Shown piece by piece: positions 18,504 to 59,279 of a DNA stretch of 64,000 nucleotides. The position numbers were made by a program, and so were the translations under genes. Origin of the DNA: a bacterium (GTDB lineage: Bacteria > Verrucomicrobiota > Kiritimatiellia > CAIKKV01 > CAIYGI01); contig JANYBP010000129.1 of the NCBI GenBank assembly GCA_025360745.1, positions 28,126-92,125 of the forward strand. Reading direction: 5' to 3'. Below the pieces are notes generated by a model. It had not been told where the DNA came from and ran no database searches. It worked only from the letters and a program-made list of their open reading frames with translations. The first letter of the stretch is position 1. The number at the start of each line of letters is the position of its first letter.

Positions 18504-18592
18504 GGAAGGGTGGCTGAGTGGTCTAAAGCGACGGTCTTGAAAACCGTTGTGGCCTTGCGCCACCGGGGGTTCGAATCCCTCCCCTTCCGCCA
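18504..18592 (+). tRNA. tRNA-Ser (UGA), long variable arm, CCA encoded
   Basis: GGAAGGGTGGCTGAGTGGTCTAAAGCGACGGTCTTGAAAACCGTTGTGGCCTTGCGCCACCGGGGGTTCGAATCCCTCCCCTTCCGCCA. Anticodon loop CTTGAAA. Confidence 0.9.
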
Positions 18593-22443: not shown

Positions 22444-23418
22444 TTGGCATTGGCAAGCGAAGCGAGTCAATGCGCAATGGAGGTGCTACGCGCCATGAAA
22501 AGCCCGATGTTGCCGGCAGACCATCAGTCCGCCATGCGCCGTGTGCTGGAACTTGGACGTTCGGGCGACCCGACATCGTTGCCTGAACTGGTGGCGATAT
22601 CGGGCTTGCCCTCAAACGAGGTGCAACGGCTGGCAGCCTCGGCCATTGGCAAATTGGCTGACTTCGGGGCCGATGCCGAAGCGGCCGTGGCCGCATTGGC
22701 GCCGCTGGCCTTGAAAGGCCGCCATCCGCAAACCCAGCAATATGCCATTCGGGCACTGAAGAAATATGGCGTTGCGGCGCGGGCGTATGTGTCCGACCTG
22801 CGCGATCTGGCGCGCAATTCGTCCCACCGCGATTACGTTCGCGCCGCCGCGGCCACGGTTGCCGACGCCATCGAACAGGCCGGCCAAGACGCGCTTGCCG
22901 GTCTGAAGCACCGTTGCCAGCGTTGTGGTCATCCGGCATCCGCCGGCGAATTCGCGCGCTCCACGCGCGCCTTTCAGCGCATCTACTGCGACCGATGCTT
23001 CGATGAGGTGTTTCTGGAGCGGCGTAACTTCGAGACGCGGGTGGAATTGAACAAGACAATCGAGGCGCGTGACGGCACGCTCGTGCAGTCGGAGGGCGAG
23101 CGGCGCATCGCCGAATGGCTCACGGCGCACGGCATGGCGTATCGCTACGACGCCAAGTTCCGCATCATCGGCGAGTTCCAGATTCGGCCCGACTTCTACC
23201 TGCCGGAATTGGACGTATACATCGAATACTGGGGTCTCGACACACCGCAATATAAGATGAGCATGTACAAAAAACAGACCCTCTATCAACAGGAGGGCAA
23301 ACGGCTTGTCTCCGTTTATCCGGCTGATTTGCCACGTCTGAGCGTTATCCTGACGGCAAAACTGCGACTTTTCGGGTGTGCCGTTGACGTTGACCAGGGA
23401 AGTGCGGCGGCGAAATGA
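22444..23418 (+). CDS. HEAT-repeat + CxxC zinc-ribbon + PD-(D/E)XK-like nuclease-domain protein (paralog 2)
   Basis: Collinear with the 17464..18378 product: SLPELVAISGLPSNEVQRLAASAIGKL, HPQTQQYAIRALKKYG, CQRC...CDRC, and SEGERRIAEWLTAHGMAYRYDA...IRPDFYLPELDVYIEYWG...KKQTLYQQEGKRLVSVY. Confidence 0.65.
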   Translation: MALASEASQCAMEVLRAMKSPMLPADHQSAMRRVLELGRSGDPTSLPELVAISGLPSNEVQRLAASAIGKLADFGADAEAAVAALAPLALKGRHPQTQQYAIRALKKYGVAARAYVSDLRDLARNSSHRDYVRAAAATVADAIEQAGQDALAGLKHRCQRCGHPASAGEFARSTRAFQRIYCDRCFDEVFLERRNFETRVELNKTIEARDGTLVQSEGERRIAEWLTAHGMAYRYDAKFRIIGEFQIRPDFYLPELDVYIEYWGLDTPQYKMSMYKKQTLYQQEGKRLVSVYPADLPRLSVILTAKLRLFGCAVDVDQGSAAAK

Positions 23419-23486: not shown

Positions 23487-23652
23487 ACGATCTGGGGTGG
23501 ACACTAGTGCTCGCGGGCTCCTATGACGAGGCGCGGACGGTTCTCGAACGCGCCGCAGCCCTGGCCCCGGCGGACTACGAACTGCCACGCAACAATCTGA
23601 AGGAACTGGAAAAACGCATGCGGTCCGCGTGCCGCATAGACAGGAGTCAAAC

Positions 23653-25668
23653 ATGACTTTCGCCGACCTTACATGGGAAGACCTGAAGAAATGGGCCGGA
23701 GCAAGGGTGGTCGGGCGCGGGAAGTCCTATCGGAGCGCCGTGGAGGACTTGCGGCTGACCTCCGATGGCCGGCTATTGGCCTGGGTGGAAGGCGGCGACC
23801 GTTACGCCACGGTTGTGACCATCGGCAAGGGCGGAAAGCTCTCGTCGGTCTGCACATGCCCCTACGCGGTCGCCTGCAAACACGCGGTGGCTGTGGTGCT
23901 GACCTATCTCGACACGATCCAGGCCCAAACGCCCGTTCCCGCCGTGGAGAAGAATGACGAACGCCTGAAGCGTCTCACCGGGGCGGAGGACGATGATGAC
24001 CTGGACGGCGACGGCTGGAATGAGGATGACGACGCGGATTCGGAAGACGTTTCCCGGAAACGCCCGGGTAAAAGCGGCCGGTCCGCCGATCCCGATTCGG
24101 CCATGCGTCGCTTTCTGGAGGGTCTCACCCCGACAGCCCTGCTGGATCTCGTCCGGGAACTGGCGAACGATTTCCCCGATGTGCGCCAGTGGATTGACGA
24201 TCGCGTGGAACTTCAATCGGGCGATGTGGCGAAACTTCTCGCCAACACGCGCCGCGAGATTGCGAACGTGTCGGCCGATCCGGGTTGGACCAGGCATTGG
24301 TCGAACGAAAGACACATTCCCAATTACTCGCGTGTGCAGGAACGGCTGGAATCTCTTCTGGCATCCGGCCATGCGGATGAGGTGGTGGCGCTGGGCGATG
24401 AAATTCTGCGGCGGGGCATCCAACAGGTCGAAATGTCCGACGACGAGGGGGAAACGGGACAGGAGATCGCCGGTTGTATGGAAATCGTCTTGCGCGCGCT
24501 GAAGACATCGTCCAAGAGCGTTCCGGAGCGCCTGCTGTGGGAAATCGACGCCCGCATACTGGACGATTACGGCATTCTGGACGGGATCGAGGGATCGTTT
24601 GCGGAACGTTCGTCCGGAACGCCGGCGGACTGGGCCGCTGTGGCCGATGAACTCGCCCGGCGTTTGCAGGCGATGCCCGTGACCGCCGCCAAGCGCGATG
24701 CGGACGGCAGTCACCGCGACTACCGCCGTCAGGGCGTCATGCGGTGGCTCCTCGACGCATTGAAGCGGGCGGGGCGGGAACGGGAGATCGCCGCCATCCT
24801 GATACGGGAGGCGGACATCACGAACTGCTATGTCGAACTTGTGGATCACCTCTTAGCCGCGAAGCAGAAGGACGCCGCCGAGGAATGGGCTCGCAAGGGG
24901 TTCGAACGAACGATCGAGAAACTGCCCGGGATTGCCTGGTCCCTGGAGGAGCGCCTGCGAAATCTTGCGGCGCGCAAAAGGGCGTGGCCGCTGGTGGCCG
25001 CTTTTCGGGCCATGGAGTTCTTCGACCGGCCCGACGCGGATCGTTTCGCGGAGGTACAGAAGGCGACGGCCGCGTGTAACCTTTGGAATACGGTTCGCCC
25101 GATGCTTCTGCGGTGGCTGGAGACAGGCGCGCGGCCCGATCGAGCGTCGCCGACGCCGCCTCCACGACGGGGGAAGACCGTGGGAGCGTCGGCGGCGACA
25201 ACCAGTGGAACAGCATGGCCACTGCCGGCCACCGGCCTTCCTGATCCGGGGGAGAATGATCGTTACCAGTCTTTCCCCGACACGTCCACTCTGATTGAAG
25301 TTGCGATTCGGGAGAAGCGCAATACCGACGTCCTTCGGTGGTATGGCGACGCGGGAATAGGCGGCGAACATTGGCAAGACCACCAGGGCGAAGCGGTGGC
25401 TGACGCCGTTCAGGAAACGCACCCCGACACGGCCCTGGCGATTTGGTTGCGCATGGCAAAGGCCCAGATCGCGATGACGAAACCGGCGACCTACGAGATA
25501 GCCGGGACGAGTCTGGAGAAAATGAAAGCCGTCTATCGGCGTACCGGGCGCCTGACGGAGTGGGAACGCCTCATCGCATCGTTGCGCACGGAAAACGCCC
25601 GTAAACCGCGCATGCTCGAAGTCCTCGACGGTTTGGAGGGCAAGCGGTCACGGATACTCCAACCATGA
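23653..25668 (+). CDS. SWIM zinc-finger domain protein
   Basis: The N-terminus GRGKSYRSAVEDLRLTSDGRLLAWVEGGDRYATVVTI...SSVCTCPYAVACKHAVAVVL carries the SWIM CxC...CxH signature. An acidic linker and a long helical C-terminal region follow. I chose the start at MTFADL. Confidence 0.8.
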   Translation: MTFADLTWEDLKKWAGARVVGRGKSYRSAVEDLRLTSDGRLLAWVEGGDRYATVVTIGKGGKLSSVCTCPYAVACKHAVAVVLTYLDTIQAQTPVPAVEKNDERLKRLTGAEDDDDLDGDGWNEDDDADSEDVSRKRPGKSGRSADPDSAMRRFLEGLTPTALLDLVRELANDFPDVRQWIDDRVELQSGDVAKLLANTRREIANVSADPGWTRHWSNERHIPNYSRVQERLESLLASGHADEVVALGDEILRRGIQQVEMSDDEGETGQEIAGCMEIVLRALKTSSKSVPERLLWEIDARILDDYGILDGIEGSFAERSSGTPADWAAVADELARRLQAMPVTAAKRDADGSHRDYRRQGVMRWLLDALKRAGREREIAAILIREADITNCYVELVDHLLAAKQKDAAEEWARKGFERTIEKLPGIAWSLEERLRNLAARKRAWPLVAAFRAMEFFDRPDADRFAEVQKATAACNLWNTVRPMLLRWLETGARPDRASPTPPPRRGKTVGASAATTSGTAWPLPATGLPDPGENDRYQSFPDTSTLIEVAIREKRNTDVLRWYGDAGIGGEHWQDHQGEAVADAVQETHPDTALAIWLRMAKAQIAMTKPATYEIAGTSLEKMKAVYRRTGRLTEWERLIASLRTENARKPRMLEVLDGLEGKRSRILQP

Positions 25669-25730
25669 TCGTTTCGGCCCCTCAAATCGCATAGAACGCC
25701 GAGGCGCTTCTCCTGCTTGATCGCAGGTCC

Positions 25731-25787
25731 TGATCGGTTTCCGGTGACTTCTGTGGAGACTGTGCTACGGATTGACCGATTCTCAAC
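25731..25787. repeat. Intergenic repeat element, copy 2
   Basis: tgatcggtttccggtgacttctgtggagactgtgctacggattgaccgattctcaac. It lies about 110 nt upstream of the 25896 start. Confidence 0.85.
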
Positions 25788-25895
25788 CTCGTCGGCTGCC
25801 GCTTCGCAATTTCTGGAATCGGCCTTGTAATCCCGGAAACCGCATGATAAAACCTGTTTGATTCCATTGCAGGAACTCTCACGAAGGAGGAAATT

Positions 25896-27023
25896 ATGAG
25901 TGACGAAATGACTGCCGATGACATTGCAGGGGAAAACGGATACTTGGACCATACAGCCGATAATGGTGGCACAGGGGACGACCAAGTGTTGGGCGCCTCG
26001 ATGGTTCCCGACGTCAATCACCCCGGAACGGGATGGAACGTCTACGAGGGAGGGAACCTGCTCTTCAACATCCTGCAGAGCAATATCACGCCAGGCGGTT
26101 TCGATATCCACCGCCTCGGTTCAGGCGGAGCAGAATCCACGGACATGGGAAACGTACTCGATTCCTTCGGGTTCAACGTCGATGATGTAAGACTGCCTTG
26201 GAGTCCGAGACCGGACCACGGGACAGCCGGAGTGGTCGGCACGCCCGACGTCGACCAAGGGTACTGGGAGCAACAGACGACCGACTTCACGTGCGCCGTT
26301 GAAGCTCAACGGGGGATCATAGAGGAGTTCACGGGACAACATGTTTCAGAGGCTCAACTCACCTACGAGGCAACCGTGAACGGGTGGCTTTCGGATCATG
26401 GCATGTCGCCAGCGGATGCCGGCAGCCTGTTGGAACTTTACGGGATTGACTGTCATTCCAGCACCGGCGCTACAGTAGAGGACCTTATGGCCGAACTTGC
26501 GCAAGGTCACAAAGTCATTGTGGGGGTGGATTCCGGCGAGATTTGGCGCAACGATTTCCCCCTGGAGGATTTCTTCCACCAGTCAGCCGATCATGCAATC
26601 TGGGTCACTGGCGTCGATATGACAGACGCCGCGCATCCGAAGGTCATCGTCAACGATTCCGGCGACCCGAACGGTGCAGGCAAGGCTTACGATCTCCAGA
26701 CCTTCGCAAACGCCTGGCAGGATTCCGGTTTCTTCTACGTCGCGACGAACGACGCTCCACCGGACATGAGTTTTGCCGCCGGACGGGGATTCGACACGAC
26801 TGTTGGTGTATTCCCCGAACTCGCATCCTACTTCGGGAATCTCTACAACGACTTCCGAGACCATTTACAGAACAGACTAGACGACCAAACACAGGTGACG
26901 CCGGCTGAGACGCCAACCCTTTTCACTGATGCGGCGGTCCGGTCGTTCATCGAGAATCTGCCCAAGAGTCCACTGACTTCGTTAAACGACTCAACCACGG
27001 ACACCCTGTTTCGCATTATTTGA
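25896..27023 (+). CDS. Papain-fold (C39-like) cysteine peptidase-domain protein, cytoplasmic
   Basis: No signal peptide and an acidic, Gly-rich N-terminus. The core runs YWEQQTTDFTCAVEAQRGIIEEF (candidate nucleophile Cys) ... GHKVIVGVDSGE ... SADHAIWVTGVDMTDAAHPKVIVNDSGDP (candidate His and Asp). The spacing matches C39-like peptidases. A strong SD AAGGAGG sits 5 nt before the ATG. Confidence 0.6.
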   Translation: MSDEMTADDIAGENGYLDHTADNGGTGDDQVLGASMVPDVNHPGTGWNVYEGGNLLFNILQSNITPGGFDIHRLGSGGAESTDMGNVLDSFGFNVDDVRLPWSPRPDHGTAGVVGTPDVDQGYWEQQTTDFTCAVEAQRGIIEEFTGQHVSEAQLTYEATVNGWLSDHGMSPADAGSLLELYGIDCHSSTGATVEDLMAELAQGHKVIVGVDSGEIWRNDFPLEDFFHQSADHAIWVTGVDMTDAAHPKVIVNDSGDPNGAGKAYDLQTFANAWQDSGFFYVATNDAPPDMSFAAGRGFDTTVGVFPELASYFGNLYNDFRDHLQNRLDDQTQVTPAETPTLFTDAAVRSFIENLPKSPLTSLNDSTTDTLFRII

Positions 27024-27034
27024 AGGAGGCGCCA

Positions 27035-28933
27035 ATGGCAAATCTCATAACGAAAGACAAAGTGCTCGATGTCGCCGCGAAGTTTATCGAACTCGCCGGC
27101 GACGTAAAGGACGCCAGCGCGATTGAACACGTTCAGACTCAAATTGCCCAATACAGACTGGGCCTCTTCCGTATCGTCGTTGTCGGCGAGGTCAAGAAGG
27201 GCAAGTCCTCCTTCATCAATGCACTGCTCGGCGAACCGGGCCTTTTGCCGACGGCAAGTGATGTCGCCACGTCAACCGTGTACAAACTGATGTACGGTAC
27301 GCCGAAGAAGATAAAGGTCTTCCCTCTTGCCGCCGAAACAGAAGCCACGGCGACCGCGCCGGCGCCGATCGAGATTGCCGAAGATCAACTTGGCGAATAT
27401 GGCACGGAGGCTGGCAACCCGAACAATCGGCGACGCGTTGATTTTATCGGCATACAGGTGCCACACCCACTACTCAAAGACGGCGTTGCCATCATTGACA
27501 CCCCTGGGCTTGGCGGACTTTTCCAAAAACACCGTGACATCACATGGCGATACATCCCCAACGCCGACGCGGTGTTCTTTCTCTTTGACTCCGTCGAGGC
27601 GGTGGCAAGCAAGACGGAAATGGAATACCTCTCCCGACTGCGTGAACTTTCCCCGCTCATCTTCTTCGTACAGACCAAGATTGACCTTGTCGAGGAGTCG
27701 CAATGGAAGAAGTGGCGGGAACGAAACCTTCAGATCATTTCGGAGCAACTGCAAGTGCCGGCGGAAAAACTGATCTACTTCCCCGTCAGCGCGAAACTCA
27801 AATTCGCTGCCGACGCCAACCACTCGCCAAAACACTTGGATCGCAGCGGATATTCCGCGCTTCTGTATTTCCTGTACAACAAACTCCTGGCGAAGAAAGA
27901 GGATCAACTAGGGCGGCGGCTTCTGTCTGCCCTTTCGGTCGAGGCCGCCGGCATACACCGGAAACTCAGCGATGGAATCCAGATCGCCGCAACCGAGACC
28001 AAAGAAGGGTTGGACAATCTCGAAAGAACGTTCATCGAGACAAAGACCAAGTATGAACAGTGGAAGGCCAGTGATTTCCAACACGCCGTGACGACGTTCC
28101 AAGACCGGGCAACCGAACTCAAGCGCAAAACGCGAGAGATGTTGCAGGAGCAAATGGACCCGTCCCCTTACAGTTCACTCGTTTCGGATATTATAGGGCA
28201 ACTTCGGGGAGGTAGTTTCGATCCCCGCCAGATGAACCAGCAGGCTGACGAAGTCTTGGGGGCGTGTGTTGATAGGTGTTCGCAGATCGTCCTCGACGTG
28301 CAAGGCGCTTATAACGATCAAATGCATGTCGTCGTGGACGAGTTTTCATCCGCCATAGGCAAGAGCCTTCCTGTGCAGATTCAAACGCCAATATCAGGGA
28401 TTGCGCGCACGCATGTCGATAGCCTGAACATGCAGTTCAGCGGCTTCGAAGTGGCGACGAACACCATGTACAAGGGCATGGCTGGAGCTGGACTCGCGAT
28501 GATTGCTGTCAATCTGGTCGGACTTCTCTTTCCACCGGTTCTGGTGGCGGGCAACATTGCGGCCATTGTCGGTACAGTGGCAGGTGGAATAAAAGGCAGC
28601 GCCGACCTCAAGGCCAAGCGCAGGGAAGAGGCGATTGCCAAACTGCAGAACGTACTATCTGATACAGTCCGCCGCGCGCAGTCCCAAGCGATTCGCCAAT
28701 TCGAGAACATCGCAGGCGAGTACGAGAAGGGCGTGCGCGATGCACTCCGTAAGGCCACCGCGGAAGTGGAACAGGAAATTGCGGACAAAATGCAGTCCAT
28801 TTCCGAGCAACGGCAACGGTCCCGCGAGGAGGCCAAACTCAAGACGGACGCACTTCGGCAGATGATGGAGAAGACAGACGGCGTTCTTCGGGATCTCGCC
28901 AGACTCAACGCGTCAACTGCCGAAAAACCGTAG
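27035..28933 (+). CDS. Bacterial dynamin-like GTPase 1 (with hydrophobic paddle)
   Basis: G1 VVVGEVKKGKSSFINALLG, G3 IIDTPGLGG, G4 VQTKID. A long helical stalk. A two-helix hydrophobic segment GMAGAGLAMIAVNLVGLLFPPVLVAGNIAAIVGTVAGGI. ATG at 27035 is preceded by AAGGAGG, which overlaps the upstream stop. The TTG at 27020 in the track is less likely. Confidence 0.8.
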   Translation: MANLITKDKVLDVAAKFIELAGDVKDASAIEHVQTQIAQYRLGLFRIVVVGEVKKGKSSFINALLGEPGLLPTASDVATSTVYKLMYGTPKKIKVFPLAAETEATATAPAPIEIAEDQLGEYGTEAGNPNNRRRVDFIGIQVPHPLLKDGVAIIDTPGLGGLFQKHRDITWRYIPNADAVFFLFDSVEAVASKTEMEYLSRLRELSPLIFFVQTKIDLVEESQWKKWRERNLQIISEQLQVPAEKLIYFPVSAKLKFAADANHSPKHLDRSGYSALLYFLYNKLLAKKEDQLGRRLLSALSVEAAGIHRKLSDGIQIAATETKEGLDNLERTFIETKTKYEQWKASDFQHAVTTFQDRATELKRKTREMLQEQMDPSPYSSLVSDIIGQLRGGSFDPRQMNQQADEVLGACVDRCSQIVLDVQGAYNDQMHVVVDEFSSAIGKSLPVQIQTPISGIARTHVDSLNMQFSGFEVATNTMYKGMAGAGLAMIAVNLVGLLFPPVLVAGNIAAIVGTVAGGIKGSADLKAKRREEAIAKLQNVLSDTVRRAQSQAIRQFENIAGEYEKGVRDALRKATAEVEQEIADKMQSISEQRQRSREEAKLKTDALRQMMEKTDGVLRDLARLNASTAEKP

Positions 28934-28944
28934 AGGGTGACGCT

Positions 28945-30645
28945 ATGGTGGCAACCCATGAAATAGCCTTCTCTTATGAACAGTTCGAGGACGTTGTAAA
29001 ACGGTTCGCGACCTCCATGCCGGAATTCTTGCTCCGGCACAAGTCAACTGCCCATCTTGCCTTTGCGCTTCAACGGCTCCGTCTTCTTGAATCGCTAGAC
29101 ATGCGTTTCACGGTTGCCATTGTGGGGCAGATGCGTGTCGGAAAATCGACACTGTTGAATGCCCTTATAGGCGAGAATCTTGCCCCCACCGGCGTTACCG
29201 AGACTACCGCGACGATTAACTGGTTTCGGCATGGTCAGGGGAACCAATGCCGCAAGTTCAGAGTTCATTGGACGGACGGCAGCACTGCCGACCTGCCCCT
29301 TCAAAAGGCGTCCGAATGGATCGGCACGGAAGAGAACGCTTCCAAGACCCGTTGTCTTGACTTCTTCGCCGACACAGATTTCTTACGCGTCGCCAACGTC
29401 GTGGATACCCCCGGCACAAGGAGCGTGATCGAGGCGCACGAGAAGGCAACGCAAGGGTTTCTTGGGGAGAAGTTGGAGGAAGCCACGCTTCGTTATGGCG
29501 GCAGTGCGGACGCAGTCGTTTACGCCATTAACCCGGTAGGCCGCGAGAGTGACCGCGACATGCTGCAACTGTTCGGTGAGCGTACCAGACTGCCCGGTGC
29601 ATCCGCGTACAACAGCATTGCCGTCGTGCAGAAATGGGAACACCTTCAGCCGGACCCCATTGCCGAGGTCCAGAGGAAGTGCCAAGTCCTCAAGGATCAA
29701 CTCGAAGGCAAGGTCGCGGCCGTAGTTCCAACAAGTGGACTATTGGCACGGCATGTTGCGGAAGTGCCTGTCCAAATCTGGCAGCAAGTAACGGACCTTT
29801 GTTCACGTAGTACCGATGCGGGTTTGGCCGCACTTCTGCTCTCAGAACAGGATTTCACGGACGATTGCCCCGGCGCGGGGCTGGACGCGGCAACCCGCCG
29901 CGGACTCTTGGCGGCAATAAGTTGGAAGATTGTTCCCCTCTGTATCTCTCTGGCCCGCCAGCAAGGGATCGCGGATGGCGAGGCACTTCGCTCCAGCCTC
30001 CTTGCGGCCAGCGGCATCCCCGCACTCCGTGACCTTCTACAGAAGAACTTCTTCTCTCGCGCTCGTTTGATCAAGGCCAGCACGATACTTCGCAAGGCAT
30101 GGGAACCATGCGAGATAGCGTTGCAGACCCTCCGCAGGGAATCAGAAACGCAAACCGCCATGGTCAAGCAGGGGCGCGAGGCGGCGAACGCGGTCGCCGC
30201 GCGTTGTGCCACCGATGCGGGATTGAACTCCGCAAAGAACTACATCGAGGATTCGCTCCGTATTGTCGTGCGGGATATATCGGCCGTGACGGAAATCCAG
30301 CGTGAAGTGGACGCCCTGAAATATCGTGTAACGCGGAACTTCGACCTTTTTGATGCGGACATCGAGTCTCTGAAATTACTGGAGACCCAACGAACAACAT
30401 TTTCTCCAACAGAGGCGCAGGAACTGGAACGTCTCTTCGGGCAGGAAGGCCCCGACCTTTGGTCACGCCTCGGTCTTGCCACAGTTCCGCCCGATATTGC
30501 GACCGCCGTGACCATGAGCAGGGAACGTTTTACTTTCTGGTCACTTCAGAAGCAACGCAACTACGGTGACAAGGCGGAAATCTGCGCTCACGCTGGCGAT
30601 GTTCTGGACCTTATCCTTAATGACCTGGAGACCGGCACCCAATGA
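28945..30645 (+). CDS. Bacterial dynamin-like GTPase 2
   Basis: G1 AIVGQMRVGKSTLLNALIG, G2-like GVTETT, G3 VVDTPGTRS. The G4 position reads VVQKWE, not N/TKxD. Helical C-terminal stalk and no hydrophobic paddle. The start is 11 nt after the upstream stop, with a GAGGGTGA SD. Confidence 0.75.
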   Translation: MVATHEIAFSYEQFEDVVKRFATSMPEFLLRHKSTAHLAFALQRLRLLESLDMRFTVAIVGQMRVGKSTLLNALIGENLAPTGVTETTATINWFRHGQGNQCRKFRVHWTDGSTADLPLQKASEWIGTEENASKTRCLDFFADTDFLRVANVVDTPGTRSVIEAHEKATQGFLGEKLEEATLRYGGSADAVVYAINPVGRESDRDMLQLFGERTRLPGASAYNSIAVVQKWEHLQPDPIAEVQRKCQVLKDQLEGKVAAVVPTSGLLARHVAEVPVQIWQQVTDLCSRSTDAGLAALLLSEQDFTDDCPGAGLDAATRRGLLAAISWKIVPLCISLARQQGIADGEALRSSLLAASGIPALRDLLQKNFFSRARLIKASTILRKAWEPCEIALQTLRRESETQTAMVKQGREAANAVAARCATDAGLNSAKNYIEDSLRIVVRDISAVTEIQREVDALKYRVTRNFDLFDADIESLKLLETQRTTFSPTEAQELERLFGQEGPDLWSRLGLATVPPDIATAVTMSRERFTFWSLQKQRNYGDKAEICAHAGDVLDLILNDLETGTQ

Positions 30646-32246
30646 ATGACGCAATCGCCATAGATTTCGGGACTATGCGCACGAAACTGTCCTATATTGA
30701 CCCCCAACGCAACACCGCCGAACTCATGCGCCTGGGCCAGGACGAACGCCCATTTGTTCCGTCAGTATTTTTCCTTGGCGAAGACGGCCGACGGTTGTTC
30801 GGTGACGATGCAACCGAGTACCTGGATTCAGACCCGCTGGCGTTCTTGCCTCGCCCGTTAAAAAGGGAATTGAGAGAGCAATGGGTTCGCGCGGGAAACC
30901 GCGTGAAAGCAACGCCAACCGAGCTTCTTTCCCTCTTGTTTGCCGGCCTTCGGAACCGCACCAAAGAACTTCCTCATTTCAGAGCGGCACTGCCGGTCGG
31001 TCTGTCTCTCACGATTCCGGCGCAGTATGGGCCGCCAGACAGGGAAATTCTGGCGAAGTCAGCCCACAACGCGGGCTTTGCCGAGGAACGCATTGACTTC
31101 GTGGATGAACCGATAGCCGCAGCCCAAGCATGGCTGTCTGAGTTAGGCGGGCAAGATGAACACGTTATCGTTCTGGACTGTGGCGGCGGCACTCTGGACT
31201 GGGCATGCCTACATCGTAAAGACGGCGACACATTCGAAATGATTCCCGAACTTCCGCCTGGCGGCGATAACCGAGTGGGCGGGTTTGACATTGATGAGGC
31301 TATCTTTGCGTTTGTTGACGACGAAATAGTCGACGACGACACGCGGAAGGAACTCCAGATAAGACGTTGCCTTGTCCGTGATCAGATTCGTGCCATCAAG
31401 GAAAAGTATTCAAGGACTGGCGCAGGAGGCAAACTCCGCGTCGGTAACACGCGCATCGAGATTCCGCATGAGGTTCTGGATGACATAATACGCCGTCGCT
31501 TCGTATTTCAAGCATGCCAGAACCTTAACTCCTACCTCGAAAAGGTGCGCTCCAAGGCGAAACTTGACAAACCAACCGTCCTTCTGGTTGGCGGGAGCGC
31601 ACGCTTACGCGGATTCCAACAGGCGATTACAGAGCAATGCAAATGCAATGCTGTGTGGTGGGAACGCTCCGAATACGCAACCGTATTGGGAGCTCTTATT
31701 CCAACCATTTCGCACTGCCAGTCCAGCACGACTGAACCGGGCAAAAACCTAGCACACAGCCCAAATTTACCGTTACGCCAAGCGGGCTGCACATTGCCAG
31801 CGACCTTCGATAATAGCGCCAGTCAACCATCGGAAAGTACACATGAGTATCCCGTTTTCGAGCAGAAACCTGTAACTTACCTTGACAGGCAGGGGGTCCA
31901 GATTACAAGCACAAGTGTTGTGATCAACGAATACAAGAGTGAACTAAATGCCATTTGGTCTTTAAGGATGGGCTTTGATTACTTGAAAGCAACTGGAGGA
32001 GGACTTCTTGGCGGAGCAGCAGTGTTAATGGCTCCGGTCTTAAAGGCTGGTTCTGCCGCTGCGATAAAAGGTATTATGAGTTGGTCGTACTATGTACTAT
32101 ATGTGAACGAGAAAAGAATTATCTCGGATTCTAAAGATCACATTAAGGAGTTATTCGATGCAATCGTCGCAGCGTTGAGGAAATCAGGCAAGATCAGAGT
32201 TGAAGTTGCGGCAGATTACAATTCAGCGTCAGTAATTCGAGGCTGA
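30642..32246 (+). CDS. Hsp70-family (actin-fold) ATPase lacking a canonical substrate-binding domain, with a novel C-terminal extension
   Basis: Phosphate-1 AIDFGTMRTK, phosphate-2 VIVLDCGGGTLDWA, adenosine motif VLLVGGSARLRGFQQAI, plus IDFVDEPIAAAQAW. The last ~180 aa are unrelated to the DnaK SBD and contain a Gly/Ala hydrophobic stretch (GGGLLGGAAVLMAPVLKAGSAAAIKGI). ATGA overlap with the upstream stop. Confidence 0.8.
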   Translation: MNDAIAIDFGTMRTKLSYIDPQRNTAELMRLGQDERPFVPSVFFLGEDGRRLFGDDATEYLDSDPLAFLPRPLKRELREQWVRAGNRVKATPTELLSLLFAGLRNRTKELPHFRAALPVGLSLTIPAQYGPPDREILAKSAHNAGFAEERIDFVDEPIAAAQAWLSELGGQDEHVIVLDCGGGTLDWACLHRKDGDTFEMIPELPPGGDNRVGGFDIDEAIFAFVDDEIVDDDTRKELQIRRCLVRDQIRAIKEKYSRTGAGGKLRVGNTRIEIPHEVLDDIIRRRFVFQACQNLNSYLEKVRSKAKLDKPTVLLVGGSARLRGFQQAITEQCKCNAVWWERSEYATVLGALIPTISHCQSSTTEPGKNLAHSPNLPLRQAGCTLPATFDNSASQPSESTHEYPVFEQKPVTYLDRQGVQITSTSVVINEYKSELNAIWSLRMGFDYLKATGGGLLGGAAVLMAPVLKAGSAAAIKGIMSWSYYVLYVNEKRIISDSKDHIKELFDAIVAALRKSGKIRVEVAADYNSASVIRG

Positions 32247-32302: not shown

Positions 32303-32725
32303 GGTCCCGGCGAGCGTACCCGAGCCCTGCTGGTTGCCCAGAATCATCAAATTGGCGAGACAATGAAAGTTGAATTTATAAGGGATGGCCAGCCGCAGTC
32401 CTGTCTAATGAAACTGATGACCCCGATGGAAAAGGGCCAAATGGTGCCAGATCCCCGCTACGATGTGCTTCCGACCTACTACATTTTCGGGGGAATCGTG
32501 TTCAGCCCACTAACCAGTGACCTGATTAAAGCGTGGGGCGATACCTGGAGCAAAGATGCTCCGGCGGATTTCCTGACCCTAATGAACCACCAGATGGCCA
32601 GGATGTGCGCGCAGGGGCTCGTCTGGTCAAAAGATCCAGCCGCCGCCGAACGGTGGCGCAAGAAGGCCGAAAAGGCACGCGTGAGCAAATTGTCTCTGGC
32701 GCGCCAGCGGCATCCCGACAAATAG
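32303..32725 (+). pseudogene. Fragment of a Deg/HtrA-like serine protease gene (PDZ-region remnant)
   Basis: The frame opens right after a TGA at 32300. It reads ...IGETMKVEFIRDGQPQSCLMKL...YDVLPTYYIFGGIVFSPLTSDLIKAWGDTW, which resembles the PDZ part of Deg-type proteases. No protease domain lies upstream. Confidence 0.4.
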
Positions 32726-32735
32726 GCATAGCACC

Positions 32736-33542
32736 GTGAAGTACGTTCTCGACGCCAATATGCTCCGTGCGCTACCAGTCCAAGGCCGGATTTCGGACGC
32801 CCTCCTGCGTCCAGGCGACCATATTGTTCTTATCGACTCCTTGCTCTACGAAATCTGTAGTTCAAAAGGAGTAGCGGACTGGGCGGCTCAATTGCGGAAG
32901 CTTCGCTATTGTTGTGAGCGGGTCGAATACTGGCAACACGTTGGCGCCGCGCTCCGCAAGGAGAGTGAGGAGAAGAAACCCTGTCCCCTGTACCATGAGA
33001 AACAGACGCGGCGCATCAAGGCGTTTCTGACATCGGACGAGCCGACATGCGATGTGACTTCTGCCGTGGCCGTGACGAAGAAGCAAAGAGAAGATGATTC
33101 TGCGCGGGCGATCTTTTCCAGTTCGGGCATCTTCCGACAACTGCTCCCGCAAGTATCCAATCGTCTGCAGGGCAAGTCCTATGAAGACATTTCGGAATTT
33201 GCCACGTGTTTCGTGAACGACCGGGACAACATACTTTTCGTTCTCAGAAAGGGTGCCGAGAATCCCGTTTTCGATGCCGACCTGGTTGATCCTACGTGGG
33301 TCGCATGGCACAACGCCAAGGCGTTTCTTGCTTTCCTCTGCGAGTTTATACGATCCAACCCCAAGGAGGATATCAATACCCTGTCGGCCAATGCGCAACA
33401 TCGTTGGATCAACAGCAAGATTGACCTGGACTACGCGATATCAACCGCCTTTGCAGACGGCATATTGACACAGGAACTCAAGGCTTTGAGGCATTTCTGT
33501 CGCTGGATGTTCGGAGATAGCCGGCGGATTCTTCCGGCGTAA
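32736..33542 (+). CDS. Hypothetical protein, possible PIN-like nuclease fold
   Basis: GTG start. The N-terminus KYVLDANML and the C-terminal DLDYAISTAFADGILTQE resemble the first and last acidic motifs of PIN domains, with a large insert between them. The assignment is tentative. Confidence 0.45.
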   Translation: MKYVLDANMLRALPVQGRISDALLRPGDHIVLIDSLLYEICSSKGVADWAAQLRKLRYCCERVEYWQHVGAALRKESEEKKPCPLYHEKQTRRIKAFLTSDEPTCDVTSAVAVTKKQREDDSARAIFSSSGIFRQLLPQVSNRLQGKSYEDISEFATCFVNDRDNILFVLRKGAENPVFDADLVDPTWVAWHNAKAFLAFLCEFIRSNPKEDINTLSANAQHRWINSKIDLDYAISTAFADGILTQELKALRHFCRWMFGDSRRILPA

Positions 33543-33673: not shown

Positions 33674-33750
<77 letters not shown>

Positions 33751-33870
33751 ACTGGCCGGGGAACCTAACACCCGGCATCGGTCAGCGTCAAGCTATTGCC
33801 GTATATTTTCGCTTGCGCGAATTGGATTGGTTTGAAATGCTCTGCCCACGTAATGGTGGGGGGACAGGTC

Positions 33871-35040
33871 ATGGCTTCGGAGCTGGCATTCGCGCTGATT
33901 AATCCGTATACGATCGCCAAATCCCGCACGGGCGGGGTGATTGGCCGGCTGATGAGCCGGACGGGGCTGGAATTGGTGGCGGCCCGCCTCTACGCCCCGG
34001 GCAGGAAATTGTCCGAGAGCTACGCCGAATCGCTGCGCAGCGAACATCCCGACCCGGAAATCGGGCGCATGCTGGCGGACTACGTTTCGCGCGCCTACAC
34101 GCCCGAGGCGGAAACGGGCCATGCGCGGCGGGTGATGCTGCTGCTCTTCGAAGGCGAAAACGCGATCCAGAAAGTTCGCGAGGCCACGGGGCACATTCGC
34201 GCCAACTGGAACGGCGGCGAAACGATTCGCGACACCTACGGCGACTACATCATGGACCCCGACGGCCGCGTGCGTTACTTCGAACCGGCGGTGCTGGTGG
34301 GGCCGACGATCGAACGCGCGGCCAAGGTGCTGCGCCTTTGGGCGGCCCATGCGGAGAGCGATGGCGGACTGATCGCCGACGCCGCCGACGTGCCCGCGGG
34401 CGAAGAGGGCGTGCAAAGCACGCTGGTGCTGCTCAAGCCGGACAACTTCCGTTTTCCCAGCGTGCGGCCGGGACATATCATCGACCTGCTGTCGCGCTCG
34501 GGACTGCGCATCGTCGGCGTCCGCAAAATCCGCATGACGGTGGCGCAGGCCGAGGATTTTTACGGACCGGTGCGCGCCGTGCTGCGCGACAAGTTCCGGC
34601 AGATCGTGGCCCGCCAGGCGGGCGAAACCCTGAACCGGGATTTGAACCTGGAAATTTCCGAGGATCTGAAGGCGCTGATCGGCGAGCACCTCGGCCCGCT
34701 GGCGGGCGATCATCAGTTCGAGGAAATCGTGCGTTTCATGACGGGCCACCGGCCTTCCGAGGTGGCCGAAGCCGACAAGGCGCAGGTGGGTTCGGAAGAT
34801 TGCCTGGCGCTCGTGTACAAAGGCATCAGCGCCGTGGAGAAAATCCGTTCCCTGCTCGGAGCGACCGATCCGGCCAAAGCCCAACCCGGCTCGGTCCGCC
34901 GCGAATACGGCCACGATATCATGGTCAACGCCGCGCATGCGTCGGATTCGCCGGAGAATGCGGCCCGCGAGATGCAGATCATCAATGTAGCGAAAGACAA
35001 CATCAGGGAATGGGTGGATAAATATTATGGTTCTAAATGA
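33871..35040 (+). CDS. Tandem nucleoside-diphosphate-kinase-like domain protein
   Basis: Two NDK-like halves: FALINPYTIAKSRTGGVIGRLMSRTGLELVAARL, and STLVLLKPDNFRFPSVRPGHIIDLLSRSGLRIVGVRKIRMTVAQAEDFY ... GSVRREYGHDIMVNAAHASDSPENAAREM (the NxxHxSDS catalytic His motif). I chose ATG at 33871, after a G-rich SD. Confidence 0.7.
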   Translation: MASELAFALINPYTIAKSRTGGVIGRLMSRTGLELVAARLYAPGRKLSESYAESLRSEHPDPEIGRMLADYVSRAYTPEAETGHARRVMLLLFEGENAIQKVREATGHIRANWNGGETIRDTYGDYIMDPDGRVRYFEPAVLVGPTIERAAKVLRLWAAHAESDGGLIADAADVPAGEEGVQSTLVLLKPDNFRFPSVRPGHIIDLLSRSGLRIVGVRKIRMTVAQAEDFYGPVRAVLRDKFRQIVARQAGETLNRDLNLEISEDLKALIGEHLGPLAGDHQFEEIVRFMTGHRPSEVAEADKAQVGSEDCLALVYKGISAVEKIRSLLGATDPAKAQPGSVRREYGHDIMVNAAHASDSPENAAREMQIINVAKDNIREWVDKYYGSK

Positions 35041-36273: not shown

Positions 36274-36357
36274 GTGGATCGCGACCGCCAAGGTAGCAGT
36301 CCCGCCCGCGCGGGGCAAGAGCCGGGAGTGGCAGCCTGACGGAATGAGGAGCACGAG

Positions 36358-37818
36358 ATGTTGTTCCCGACGGTAAGTTTCGCGCTGTTTTTCCTGCTGG
36401 TACTGGGTTTGAACTGGGCGCTGATCCGGCGTCCGGCGCTCTGGGCCTGGTTTCTGCTGGCGTCGAGCTGGTTCTTCTACGGCTGGTGGGACTGGCGCTT
36501 CCTCGGTCTGCTGGCGGTCAGCACGATCGTCAACCACTGGGGCGGCGTATGGCTTTACCGCGCCCGCGGGGCGCGGGCGCGGAAGGTCTGGATCACCGGA
36601 TTGATCGTGTTCAATCTGGGCTTGCTGGGCTTCTTCAAATATTACGGCTTCTTTGTCCTGACCGCCTACCAACTGGCCGCCACTCTGGGTATCCCCTGTT
36701 CGCTGCCGCTGCTCAGCGTGACTTTGCCGATCGGCCTTTCGTTTTTCACCTTTCATGCGCTGAGTTATGTGATCGACATTTATCGCGGCGAAATGACGCC
36801 GGCCAAACGCATCGCGGGATTCGGCGCCTATTTGGCCTATTTTCCGCATCTGGTGGCCGGTCCGATCGTGCGCGCGGGCGACATCGTGCCGCAGATCGAG
36901 CACCCCCCCACGCGCCTGGAGCCGATCGATATCGGCCGGGCGGCCTGTCTGATCCTGGTGGGTATTTTCAAGAAGGTGGTGATCGCCAACGGCCTCTCCG
37001 CGCGCATGGCCGATCCCATCTTCGCCGGCGGCGCCATGCACAACGCACCCGACACGATTCTCGGCGTGTACGCCTATGCGGTGCAGATCTACTGCGACTT
37101 CTCGGCCTACTCGGATATCGCGATCGGGCTGGCGCTCCTGATGGGCCTGCGTTTCCCGATCAATTTCGACGCGCCCTATTTCTCGCTCTCGCTCCAGGAA
37201 TTCTGGCGTCGCTGGCACATTTCGCTCTCCTCCTGGCTGCGCGACTATCTATACGTGCCGCTGGGCGGCTCGCGCTGCGCCCACTGGAAGATCTATCGCA
37301 ATCTGATCGTCACCTTCCTGCTGGGCGGCCTGTGGCACGGCGCGGCCTGGACATTTGTGCTGTGGGGCGCGCTGCACGGCGTTTACCTGGCGTTGGAACG
37401 CATCCTGCAACCGGTCGTACGGAAGGCGGCGGCGTTTTTCGGCGTGGGGTCCGGACCGGGCGCGGGACGACGCTGGCCCACCTGGATCGCGCACGGGCTG
37501 GCGCGCTTGTGGCTGTTTCAAGTGGTATGTCTGGCGTGGATCTTTTTCCGCGCCCAGACCTGGGACGATGCCACCAAACTGCTGGGCGCGCTGACCGACT
37601 GGAAAGGGTCGGCGACGCTCTGGACGGGGATCAACCTCTCCGTGCTCGCGATCGGCTTCCTCTCCCAATTCCTGGACGGCCGGCGTATCGCCCGCGTCTG
37701 GGATGGGCTGGCGCGCCTGCCGCCGGTGCTCATCGGCTTGATCGCGGCGGTCGTGCTGACCGTGATCCTGGCCTTCGGACCCGAGGGCGTGGCGCCCTTC
37801 ATCTACTTCCAGTTCTGA
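36358..37818 (+). CDS. MBOAT-family membrane O-acyltransferase (AlgI/DltB-like)
   Basis: FFKYYGFF, SFFTFHALSYVIDIYRG, YLAYFPHLVAGPIVR, SLQEFWRRWHISLSSWLRDYLYVPLGG and GLWHGAAW (MBOAT catalytic His context). Confidence 0.9.
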   Translation: MLFPTVSFALFFLLVLGLNWALIRRPALWAWFLLASSWFFYGWWDWRFLGLLAVSTIVNHWGGVWLYRARGARARKVWITGLIVFNLGLLGFFKYYGFFVLTAYQLAATLGIPCSLPLLSVTLPIGLSFFTFHALSYVIDIYRGEMTPAKRIAGFGAYLAYFPHLVAGPIVRAGDIVPQIEHPPTRLEPIDIGRAACLILVGIFKKVVIANGLSARMADPIFAGGAMHNAPDTILGVYAYAVQIYCDFSAYSDIAIGLALLMGLRFPINFDAPYFSLSLQEFWRRWHISLSSWLRDYLYVPLGGSRCAHWKIYRNLIVTFLLGGLWHGAAWTFVLWGALHGVYLALERILQPVVRKAAAFFGVGSGPGAGRRWPTWIAHGLARLWLFQVVCLAWIFFRAQTWDDATKLLGALTDWKGSATLWTGINLSVLAIGFLSQFLDGRRIARVWDGLARLPPVLIGLIAAVVLTVILAFGPEGVAPFIYFQF

Positions 37819-37868
37819 GCCAATTACAAAGTTTGACAGACACGCGGGGGCCTTTACAATAGCGGTTC

Positions 37869-38168
37869 ATGGCGCATCCCAGTCAGCACGGCATGCAGAT
37901 CGGCGACGATCGCGCGGCGGCCCGCAAAGGCCTGCCGTTACGCTCGGCGCTGCTGGCGCTGGGCGTGTTTTATGTCGCCACGGGGCTGTTGAACGGTGTG
38001 CGGATTTACGAGGAGACGTCGCGGCTGCCGTACGGACGCTGGCGCACCGTCTGGCTGGCGGTGGCGTGGCCGCTCGACCGGCTGAGTGCAATGACCCGCC
38101 TGGACCGTCCACGCGCCTGGATGGAACGGAACCTGGCGCAAAAAGAGTCTGATCAGCATGCAAAATAA
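37869..38168 (+). CDS. Hypothetical small membrane protein
   Basis: 99-aa ORF with one hydrophobic helix (ALLALGVFYVATGLLNGV). It overlaps the next gene's start by 11 nt. No family recognised; it may be spurious. Confidence 0.3.
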   Translation: MAHPSQHGMQIGDDRAAARKGLPLRSALLALGVFYVATGLLNGVRIYEETSRLPYGRWRTVWLAVAWPLDRLSAMTRLDRPRAWMERNLAQKESDQHAK

Positions 38169-41766: not shown

Positions 41767-41775
41767 AGGAGCATC

Positions 41776-42513
41776 ATGCAAAAAAGCGGGCTTGTCAGGA
41801 CAGTGCTGGTATTGGTCGCGGCGGGAATGAGTGTAACGGCGACGGCGGCCGCGCCCGCCACAAACGCGGCCGCGCCGCGGCGGGTTTTGATTCTGGGCGA
41901 CTCGATGATGCAACTGTTGTCGCATTCCCTGGAGCGCGAACTGGCCAGGCGTCCGGGAGTGACAGCCACCACCTTCACATCGCTGGCCTCCGGACTGGCG
42001 CGGTTGGATGCCTTCGACTGGCTCGGCAAGATGCGGAGCGCGATGGGCGAAGCCAAGCCCGACACCGTGATCGTCGGTCTGGGCACCAACGACAAGCAGG
42101 CGCTGCAGGCGGAAGGCAGCGCCGTTGTGCAACCGGGCGATCCGGCCTGGAACAAAGAGTACGCGCGGCGGGTGGGCGAGGCCATGGACATCCTGGTGAA
42201 CGGTGGCGCCCGGCAGGTGATTTGGATGGAACTGCCCGACATGCGGGACGAGCGGCATCAGGCCGACGCGCTGGAAATCAACGCCATTCTCCGCCAGGAG
42301 GCCAAACTGCGTCCGGCGATCCGTATTTTCGACACCAAGGCTCTGCTTAGCCGCAAGCCCGGGACGTTCAGTCCCTACCTGATCGGCCGCAACGGCATGC
42401 CTTTGGCCGTGCGGGAGGGCGACGGTATTCATCTCAGCCGCGCGGGGGCCGATTTAACGGCCGCCAAACTGGTCTCCGAACTGGGCCTTGCCGACTTGGC
42501 GGTGAAACCATGA
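41776..42513 (+). CDS. SGNH/GDSL-type hydrolase (DUF459-like), secreted
   Basis: Signal peptide. Block I VLILGDSMM, block III GLGTNDK, block V GDGIHLS. ATGA-type overlap with the next gene (42510-42513). Confidence 0.75.
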   Translation: MQKSGLVRTVLVLVAAGMSVTATAAAPATNAAAPRRVLILGDSMMQLLSHSLERELARRPGVTATTFTSLASGLARLDAFDWLGKMRSAMGEAKPDTVIVGLGTNDKQALQAEGSAVVQPGDPAWNKEYARRVGEAMDILVNGGARQVIWMELPDMRDERHQADALEINAILRQEAKLRPAIRIFDTKALLSRKPGTFSPYLIGRNGMPLAVREGDGIHLSRAGADLTAAKLVSELGLADLAVKP

Positions 42514-54967: not shown

Positions 54968-54995
54968 AACATCTCCTCGTAGTCTTGTTCCAGGA

Positions 54996-59259: not shown

Positions 59260-59279
59260 GGGAGTTCCTATTGAAATGT

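Follow-up and report, generated by a model that had tools for sequence, protein, structure and literature searches.

A translationally coupled four-gene cassette of a papain-like peptidase, two dynamin-like GTPases and an Hsp70-type ATPase, a candidate bacterial conflict system

A stretch of 64,000 nucleotides from a bacterium of the Kiritimatiellia (Verrucomicrobiota; contig JANYBP010000129.1 of assembly GCA_025360745.1), called the window here, carries four adjacent genes, A, B, C and D, which encode a papain-like cysteine peptidase, two bacterial dynamin-like proteins (BDLPs) and an Hsp70-type ATPase that lacks the DnaK substrate-binding domain (SBD). We found that A-B-C-D are translationally coupled, and that the same module is found in at least six bacterial phyla. 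The cassette is clearly accessory and mobile, and all four proteins retain intact catalytic sites. Tentatively, and at a little under an even chance, we read it as a self-contained mobile GTPase-centred conflict system, directed against phages or other mobile elements and working at the cytoplasmic membrane.

The coordinates of the genes and their parts are collected in Table 1. All four open reading frames (ORFs) are on the plus strand and fill 25896-32246, as an initial annotation of this DNA, made from the letters alone, had proposed, and the close junctions that it described are all present. The stop codon of A (TGA, 27021-27023) lies inside GAAGGAGG, 5 nt ahead of the B start codon (ATG at 27035); the stop codon of B (TAG, 28931-28933) is followed after 11 nt by the ATG of C at 28945, and C and D share an ATGA at 30642-30645. 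The motifs that it quoted are likewise all in the translations, namely TDFTCAVE in A, GEVKKGKS, DTPG and TKID in B, GQMRVGKS, DTPG and QKWE in C, and DFGT, DCGGGTLD and LVGGSAR in D. No sigma-70-like promoter above chance was detected in the 228-nt region upstream of A, and promoter and terminator scans over 22-34 kb did not exceed shuffled expectation. The operon was also described as lower in GC than its surroundings and as lying between tRNA genes beside gene scars. GC is indeed 0.52-0.58 over 26-33 kb compared with 0.60-0.66 in the flanks, and the GC content at third codon positions of A-C is 0.61-0.65 compared with 0.78-0.84 in neighbouring host-like genes; tRNA-Ser (18504-18592) and tRNA-Pro (33674-33750) stand on either side, and a 120-aa ORF lies downstream of the operon. 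This ORF matches only positions 1-58 of 145 of PDZ_3 and is a gene remnant; it is followed by a 268-aa ORF without family match, and the two (32363-33542) lie between the cassette and tRNA-Pro and share the same lowered GC. When the tRNA-Pro 3′ end was sought upstream as a direct repeat, chance 9-11-mers were all that turned up, so that no attachment (att) site or element boundary could be defined.

Relatives (loci labelled L001, L006 and so on; homologous proteins labelled P0004, P0241 and so on) were collected in a genome scan from A, which took one genome for each of 185,579 species and returned 80 loci, and locus content was scored with phmmer by comparing the window proteins with six-frame ORFs. 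A has 428 homologs; across the 185,579 species its relatives number only 135, stand-alone Mycobacterium-type genes included. Close relatives of A were found at 37 loci, four of which are cut by contig ends; in 27 of the 33 informative loci all four genes are present, mostly in the order A-B-C-D, and in 32 of the 33 there is at least one partner. Metagenome loci anchored on D, with an identity of at least 31% in the nucleotide-binding domain (NBD), carry C in 12 of 13 informative cases, plus B and A where the contig reaches; no cassette genes were detected beside more distant Hsp70s in the metagenome loci. The four genes therefore co-occur in other genomes, a test that the initial annotation had set for its proposal. 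In the Planctomycetota the hosts include Thermoguttaceae, Pirellulaceae, Planctomycetaceae, Ca. Kuenenia and Rhodopirellula, and in the Verrucomicrobiota they include Verrucomicrobiales, Terrimicrobiaceae and five Akkermansia species; further hosts are Cloacimonadota, Competibacteraceae and other Proteobacteria, Streptomyces and a plasmid of Anabaena. Loci L046-L087, from Mycobacterium and other Actinomycetota, hold stand-alone C39_2-like genes of ∼30-34% identity to the catalytic core of A; these have no B, C or D partners and were treated as a separate subfamily. P0097, a remote Hsp70-family protein from actinobacteria, likewise stands alone, thus the association does not hold in all remote relatives.

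Variant loci inform on how the parts are joined. In L006 (2-12123), an [Hsp70 NBD]-[B-type dynamin] fusion and a [C-type dynamin]-[Hsp70 NBD] fusion are followed by a free C-type dynamin and two D paralogs of the Hsp70-TPR type, with no peptidase within the contig. These fusions are evidence of the Rosetta-stone kind for direct cooperation of the NBD with both dynamins. A Gulosibacter genome holds Dyn-Hsp70-Dyn without a peptidase, and in L092 very divergent A, B and C, detected by hidden Markov model (HMM), stand upstream of an Hsp70-ankyrin protein. Six Streptomyces loci (L026, L031, L034, L035, L039 and L043) have the order C-A-x-B-D and a seventh (L044) has B-A-x-C with no D detected; in all seven the gene x is a homolog of a 187-aa gene of the Anabaena plasmid pANA01. 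The G4 motif of the Streptomyces C proteins is SRSD in the six C-A-x-B-D loci and TKVE in L044, and the hydrophobic paddle of B, which is described below, is mostly absent at the Streptomyces loci. One Pirellulaceae metagenome-assembled genome carries two cassettes (L019 and L020) on different contigs with unrelated flanks. We also observed a short remnant ORF between C and D in L019, and small ORFs (73, 85 and 122 aa, one with weak zinc-ribbon matches) between B and C in the closest relatives, L001 (7799-8274) and L003 (4908-5276), which are not found in the window.

At three loci the module is combined with DO-GTPase genes: L143, which is pANA01 (NC_019428.1, 60833-72183), L037 (8517-17312) and L090 (8238-12215). 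The plasmid pANA01 encodes a D-family protein consisting of the NBD only (HMM 2e-78) and a bona fide DO-GTPase (DO-GTPase1/2, 57 bits against a cutoff of 27), together with another DO-GTPase-like gene with a weaker match and a pair of paralogous unknowns (412 and 479 aa); A, the 187-aa gene, B and C come next, and a CHAT-domain gene adjoins the locus. In L037, A-B-C-D with an NBD-only D precedes two homologs of DO-GTPases and one of the pANA01 unknowns, and L090, which lies within a mobile element, has a single dynamin, a bare NBD and a weak DO-GTPase match, with a faint Peptidase_C39 match ∼5 kb upstream on the opposite strand. Because D is tail-less in all three hybrids, their composition points to the DO-GTPase module and the D tail as alternative means of coupling. 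The hybrids connect the module to predicted GTPase-centric conflict systems.

Gene A was proposed to encode a cytoplasmic protein with a C39-like Cys/His/Asp core, and the alignment, the structure model and the Foldseek matches agree with this. The window protein reaches Peptidase_C39_2 (PF13529) at E=7e-5 and 23.9 bits, just under the cutoff of 24, which many A orthologs exceed, and gave no Pfam match to PF03412 (C39). Its catalytic residues are Q127, C133, H233 and N253-D254. Across 40 aligned sequences H233, N253 and D254 never vary, and conservation of Q127 and C133 is 90% or higher; together they form the Gln-Cys-His-Asp/Asn arrangement of clan CA peptidases. The AlphaFold2 (AF2) model has a predicted local distance difference test (pLDDT) score above 90 over aa 110-330, and its Foldseek matches are 3erv (the C39-like peptidase of B. 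anthracis), Alr0975/primitive phytochelatin synthase, the CdiA papain-like toxin, PeiR, staphopain, and the C39 domains of ComA, PCAT1 and LahT. The N-terminal extension (aa 1-110) is variable, and nearly all A homologs terminate in the conserved motif L..D/E...D/NxLFxxI, a candidate docking helix on the basis of the alignment. The hydropathy scan detected no signal peptide or hydrophobic segment in A, and the protein is therefore cytoplasmic.

That B and C have the dynamin fold, another test set beforehand, is supported by profile matches for both and by a structure model for C. B matches Dynamin_N at 5e-21 (Pfam) and has a P-loop at G51-S58 with K57, the DTPG and TKID motifs and a helical stalk. 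Among PDB sequences it matches IniA (4.8e-22, with an alignment that extends to aa 305), BDLP1 (8e-16) and Cj-DLP1 (1e-7), and LeoA is absent from these matches. In 41 orthologous ORFs the G1, G3 and G4 motifs are conserved as GExKxGKSS, DTPG and TK(x)D. The two-helix hydrophobic paddle claimed for B corresponds to a hydrophobic stretch in two segments at aa 487-519; an equivalent segment is present at the same position in 32 of the 41 ORFs, and the hydropathy scan found nothing comparable in A, C or D. C had been described as paddle-less, consistent with hydrophobic segments in just 5 of 34 C orthologs, which are borderline. C matches Dynamin_N at 1.7e-15 (Pfam) and carries the P-loop lysine K67, and its orthologs keep GxxxxGKS, a conserved Thr and DTPG. 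Its G4 motif QKWE is present as reported; its description as deviant, in the sense of degenerate, does not stand, since the family-conserved form (H/Q)KW(D/E) retains the Lys and an acidic residue. The best PDB match of the C ortholog profile is Cj-DLP2 (9.6e-23), then BDLP1, Cj-DLP1, IniA and mitofusins. The AF2 model of C, built from an alignment of database homologs (pLDDT 84.4, predicted TM-score 0.75), has a G domain and long helices, and Foldseek matches it at 1e-11 to 1e-8 to mitofusin-1/-2, BDLP, SynDLP, Cj-DLP1/2 and IniA over ∼490-660 aligned columns. Because B bears the paddle and C is paddle-less and Cj-DLP2-like, B and C look like a heterotypic pair of the DLP1/DLP2 type (DLP, dynamin-like protein).

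D was expected to be an actin-fold ATPase without the DnaK SBD, and both expectations were upheld: an HSP70 profile, solved Hsp70 NBDs among PDB sequences (down to 7e-14) and conserved motifs agree on the fold, and the HSP70 profile covers D only at profile positions 136-349 of 599. The ATPase motifs (D8 in IDFGT, K74, E156 in EPxAA, D179-GGGT-D186, GG213-214..D218, LLVGG and GA) are invariant or at least 85% conserved among 29-41 homologs. D scores 53 and 72 bits against the NCBIfam DnaK and HscA equivalogs, whose cutoffs are 822 and 708, and there are no DnaJ or GrpE genes in the window operon or its neighbours. The linker between NBD and tail, with Pro/Ser/Thr-rich equivalents in P0004 and P0241, is a candidate proteolytic site. 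The tail has no Pfam match even at E=1, and its C-terminal part, called module X here, gave only 3 matches in an exhaustive search of 1.84 billion representatives. The best of these, P0241, consists of Hsp70-NBD, Zn-ribbon, FGE-sulfatase and a terminal module X. L003 encodes a further copy of module X directly 3′ of its D gene, where it is joined to an S1 domain (27% identity, E=5e-10). The hydropathy of the window module is below the transmembrane (TM) threshold. The called S1-domain gene of L003 had at first been likened to the D tail and shows no similarity; the true match sits upstream of the called start. At 9061-9873 of L003, as also in L004, the S1 gene is called from 9439 (145 aa), and its ORF extends upstream over the module X copy. 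Judged from this ORF, the real product is probably module X plus S1.

The tail of D is the part of the cassette that changes. The window tail has no detectable similarity to the tails of the closest cassettes, whereas for A, B, C and the NBD the identity to these cassettes is 59-85%. Among 120 D homologs there are at least eight tail types (TPR, Sel1, FGE-sulfatase, WD40, beta-helix, ankyrin, DUF1566, zinc-ribbon and long unannotated ones), which are swapped even between close relatives, and extra D paralogs are present in L006, L096 and L023. Because its C-terminal domains are swappable, the proposal that D is the sensing part gains support.

The surroundings of the cassette differ from one relative to the next. 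No genes are common to the flanks of the window cassette and those of other cassette loci. In Akkermansia, Planctomycetota and Verrucomicrobiota the flanks are non-syntenic, with a coverage of 0-0.28 compared with 0.5-0.98 for the cassette in most pairs; in more divergent Planctomycetota pairs the cassette coverage is 0.13-0.37. Because the flanks are unrelated between relatives, the cassette evidently moves as a block, and the locus is accessory rather than core, in agreement with a further test set at the outset. Beside the closest relatives there are integrase, RadC, DUF932, DNA-ligase and VapE genes and a module of PD-(D/E)xK and sliding-clamp genes, the last of which is absent from the window, and pANA01 carries its cassette variant beside an integrase fragment. 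No A relatives were found in 2.9 million viral contigs (IMG/VR) or in 50,697 phage records (GenBank), which rules against a viral origin.

The two genes directly upstream of the window cassette (Table 1) are PADLOC-positive and are candidate defence genes; homologs of both were not found beside the cassette at any other locus. A 49-aa ORF is called between the HEAT/CxxC/PD-(D/E)xK and SWIM genes in L088. The 111 immediate neighbour genes of 35 loci fall into 72 Pfam families, mostly singletons, and the association of the cassette with known defence genes is weak. Genes for penicillin-binding protein (PBP) transpeptidases were observed directly 3′ of the cassette in unrelated contigs (L001 12707-14452, L002 11404-13149 and L090 14336-15445), and they recall the HcpA-like gene of the C. 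jejuni dlp1/dlp2 operon.

Table 1. Positions in the window of the cassette genes, their parts and the adjoining upstream features
Feature	Position	Strand	Description
Gene A	25896-27023	+	ORF, 375 aa; papain-fold (C39_2-like) cysteine peptidase
Gene B	27035-28933	+	ORF, 632 aa from ATG; bacterial dynamin-like GTPase
Gene C	28945-30645	+	ORF, 566 aa; second BDLP/mitofusin-type GTPase, paddle-less
Gene D	30642-32246	+	ORF, 534 aa; Hsp70-type NBD, linker and rare tail
B aa 487-519, hydrophobic hairpin (paddle)	28493..28591	+	Kyte-Doolittle peaks 2.28 and 1.78
D aa 1-355, Hsp70-type NBD	30642..31706	+	Pfam HSP70 1.9e-12
D aa 356-410, low-complexity linker, probably disordered	31707..31871	+	Without conservation or Pfam match
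D aa 411-534 and stop, rare C-terminal module X	31872..32246	+	Gly/Ala-rich hydrophobic stretch GGGLLGGAAVLMAPVLKAGSAAAIKG
Upstream intergenic region, presumed operon promoter region	25668..25895	+	228 nt; ends in the A ribosome-binding site AAGGAGGAAATT-ATG
HEAT/CxxC/PD-(D/E)xK protein gene, outside the cassette	22444-23418	+	PADLOC HEAT_CxxC_PD-DEXK 5.3e-110
SWIM zinc-finger protein gene, outside the cassette	23629-25668	+	679 aa; PADLOC PDC-S62 3.2e-17

The nearest validated system is Eleos (LeoA and LeoBC), also called Dynamins. Millman et al. (2022) showed that these operons of two dynamin genes confer protection from phages, for which both P-loops are required, and that paired dynamins alone suffice for defence in Bacillus. 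As in Eleos, two dynamin-like GTPase genes with intact P-loops are adjacent here, 11 nt apart, and both systems are accessory, with a distribution of the island type. Eleos consists of two genes, or of three in split form, whereas in the present module a peptidase and an SBD-less Hsp70 are co-conserved with the dynamins and the NBD can be fused to them. The initial annotation expected partial Eleos matches for B and C at most and none for A and D, and PADLOC returned much that picture: B matches LeoBC (1.2e-22, aa 37-601) and LeoA (1e-20) over its full length, the LeoA match of C is confined to aa 49-92 (44 residues around the P-loop), A has no match and D has one weak match to PDC-M61B (2.6e-5). 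IniA, BDLP1 and Cj-DLP1 are closer relatives of B than LeoA is, and PADLOC-DB v2 contains no model for A, full-length C or D. The NCBIfam scores of the four proteins are far under every equivalog cutoff (28.1 bits against 325 for LeoA/HP0731), indicating that none of them is an ordinary DnaK, HscA, DynA or LeoA. By these profile comparisons, ‘Eleos-like’ is only a loose description of the module.

In the Cj-DLP1/Cj-DLP2 pair of C. jejuni (5OWV/5OXF; Liu, Noel & Low 2018), Cj-DLP2 is the closest match of C, and B matches Cj-DLP1. The C. jejuni dlp operon has an HcpA-like gene, and some D tails of the present module are Sel1 or TPR; unlike the cassette, that operon has no Hsp70-like ATPase or peptidase and is regarded as a membrane-tethering or repair machine. 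IniA/IniC and B. subtilis DynA are also membrane-active BDLPs, IniA being the best solved relative of B, but they are encoded by chromosomal, lineage-conserved genes for stress or repair that have neither Hsp70-like nor peptidase partners. DynA adds to phage tolerance, and this work and the Eleos operons show that bacterial dynamins can act against phages.

Kaur, Burroughs, Iyer & Aravind (eLife 2020, PMC7159879) predicted conflict systems with two paralogous DO-GTPases and GAP1, some of which carry HSP70, including copies ‘sans peptide-binding domain’, peptidases and highly variable modules; the word ‘dynamin’ is absent from their paper. These share with the cassette two paralogous GTPases, an SBD-less HSP70 and a peptidase, the last two positions being filled here by D and A. 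In contrast to the DO-GTPase systems, B and C match Dynamin_N and not DO-GTPase1/2 in Pfam, and the cassette has no GAP1, GrpE, DnaJ or tubulin, with no Pfam match to GAP1 in the scanned window genes. The module is thus not without precedent, since an SBD-less HSP70 with two GTPases was already predicted as a conflict system. Another predicted defence system, CoCoNuT (Bell et al., eLife 2024, PMC11090510), has an Hsp70-like unit fused to or beside a McrB GTPase; its context is a McrB-type AAA+ GTPase and a McrC nuclease, and its Hsp70 unit, a predicted RNA binder, keeps the SBD but is degenerate in its ATPase motifs, whereas in D the motifs are intact and there is no SBD. No description of a system of dynamin, Hsp70-like and C39-like proteins was found in full-text literature searches, with subscription-only papers outside the search, consistent with the earlier statement that no four-gene version had been described. 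What is new is the four-gene combination; the parts are known, as is the grammar of paired GTPases, an Hsp70-type ATPase, a peptidase and a variable arm.

Sensors of the STAND/NLR type combine a constant NTPase switch with exchangeable TPR, WD40, ankyrin or FGE-sulfatase-type arms. The likeness of D to them is an analogy only and not homology, its NTPase being an actin-fold Hsp70 NBD and not a STAND P-loop ATPase. In the mechanism that we propose, each step of which we hold with less confidence than the conflict-system reading itself, D would be the specificity and switch subunit, with a constant ATPase domain and an exchangeable C-terminal domain. Its tail may recognise an invader- or damage-derived cue, or else target the complex, and its ATPase cycle would then gate the heterotypic B-C pair by releasing or recruiting it. 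C would serve as the Cj-DLP2-like partner and B as the paddle-bearing partner that inserts into the membrane, and GTP-driven remodelling by the pair might seal or deliberately disrupt the membrane, limiting the spread of the invader. A, probably docked through its conserved C-terminal helix, could make activation irreversible by linker cleavage; the cut would most plausibly fall in the disordered linker between the NBD and tail of D, or else in a segment that autoinhibits one of the dynamins. At loci with a tail-less D, the DO-GTPase module would take over the coupling.

The conflict-system reading draws on the coupling of the genes, their co-occurrence and mobility, the intact active sites, the low GC, the variable D tails, the DO-GTPase hybrids and the NBD-dynamin fusions, and also on the precedent of phage-protective two-gene dynamins and the two PADLOC-positive genes upstream in the window; from these we infer a defence or abortive-infection role. 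Several observations weigh against it. PADLOC matches are sparse among the 111 neighbour genes and come to, as raw counts, 3 for PD-T4-6 (kinase-like), 3 for mad6 and 2 each for mad3, MkoA and WGR. In six Streptomyces species the 8 kb upstream of the cassette are syntenic, which fits vertical inheritance or membership of a larger cluster. The tail of the window D is no classic ligand-binding repeat, bacterial dynamins such as IniA, DynA and Streptomyces DynA/B also serve outside immunity, in membrane repair, fission and cytokinesis, and the peptidase substrate is a guess, as is the choice between repair and disruption of the membrane. The initial annotation had itself named housekeeping membrane remodelling as the alternative. 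Hsc70 is known to disassemble endocytic coats. By analogy, the cassette could be a non-immune envelope-stress or membrane repair and remodelling machine, in which the dynamins reshape the membrane, the Hsp70-like ATPase assembles or disassembles their polymer and the peptidase provides turnover. The kinship of B with IniA and BDLP1 speaks for this, as IniA and DynA function under stress from drugs or pores, and so do the few defence genes nearby, the PBP transpeptidase genes downstream in L001/L002 and L090, the Streptomyces synteny and the enrichment of the cassette in bacteria of the Planctomycetota-Verrucomicrobiota-Chlamydiota (PVC) group, which have elaborate membranes. Such a machine agrees poorly with a patchy distribution (the 135 A relatives mentioned above), with flanks that are non-syntenic within genera and a composition atypical for the host, with copies on mobile elements or a plasmid, with the wholesale replacement of D tails between close relatives and multiple D paralogs at some loci, and with the association with DO-GTPase and CHAT genes. 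Patchiness, mobility, tail swaps and links to conflict genes are hallmarks of arms-race modules rather than of housekeeping, and we consider the repair reading, which is the main rival, somewhat unlikely.

The cassette might instead be cargo that serves its mobile element, by competitor exclusion, vesicle-mediated transfer or addiction, and not host immunity as such. The closest relatives do stand at the edge of integrase, RadC, DUF932, ligase, PD-(D/E)xK and sliding-clamp sets, the Anabaena copy is on a plasmid by an integrase fragment, and the window copy abuts the tRNA-Pro gene; but the window copy has no flanking mobile-element genes and no att repeat, the neighbours at most genome loci are heterogeneous and non-mobile, and relatives are absent from the viral contigs and phage records, which together make this explanation quite improbable. 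An ordinary two-gene Eleos operon with an unrelated peptidase and an Hsp70-like protein as passengers would account for the matches of B to the LeoBC and LeoA profiles and for the protection given by paired dynamins alone in Bacillus. It would not account for four-gene co-conservation across phyla, the coupled junctions, the 44-residue limit of the LeoA match of C, the LeoA/HP0731 score or the lack of a LeoA structure among the matches of B, and it is effectively excluded by the co-occurrence and fusion data, leaving it a very small share of our confidence. Smaller still is the share of a locus for peptide maturation or of the bacteriocin type, with the C39-like peptidase cleaving off double-glycine leaders: the fold of A does match the C39 domains of the ComA, PCAT1 and LahT type, but the window operon contains no ABC exporter and no double-glycine-leader precursor gene, A has no signal peptide, TM segment or transporter fusion, and its constant partners are GTPases and an ATPase.

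Elsewhere in the window, a second low-GC stretch (0.48-0.55) at 54542-60443 on the minus strand holds an RHS-type polymorphic-toxin locus with a TSP3-repeat protein, a DUF6531+RHS protein and an overlapping further RHS ORF (a frameshift or a split gene), and a 141-aa unannotated ORF after the RHS ORFs could be an immunity gene. Right after tRNA-Pro, a 414-aa ORF (33796-35040) contains three separate nucleoside-diphosphate-kinase (NDK)-like stretches, an unusual multi-NDK architecture. The region 36340-50458 encodes an MBOAT acyltransferase and then three paralogous giant proteins (1223-1449 aa), two on the plus strand and one on the minus strand, with TPR repeats and a polysaccharide-deacetylase domain.

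The purpose of bacterial dynamins and the manner of their activation have long been in question, and the cassette, which is enriched in PVC bacteria, provides two constant dynamin partners, an Hsp70-type ATPase and a cysteine peptidase, together with natural fusions, from which direct regulatory predictions follow. Experiments are feasible, because the cassette is present in Akkermansia spp., Ca. Kuenenia, Streptomyces and a plasmid of the cultured Anabaena sp. 90. If the module is defensive, it would offer bacterial immunity a mechanistically new type of sensor, an actin-fold ATPase with swappable arms, and would connect three sets of systems hitherto separate: the Eleos dynamins, which are validated by experiment, the DO-GTPase systems, which are predicted, and the Hsp70-linked GTPase systems. 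The further claim, that it represents a new class of immune system in which an SBD-less Hsp70 pathogen sensor with exchangeable recognition domains directly drives a heterotypic dynamin pair at the membrane and a dedicated papain-like protease commits the response, is possible and in our view rather doubtful. If true, it would be the first direct functional partnership of Hsp70 and dynamin in bacteria, and it would parallel, and possibly foreshadow, the eukaryotic cooperation of Hsc70 with dynamin and of Hsp70 with dynamin-related proteins.

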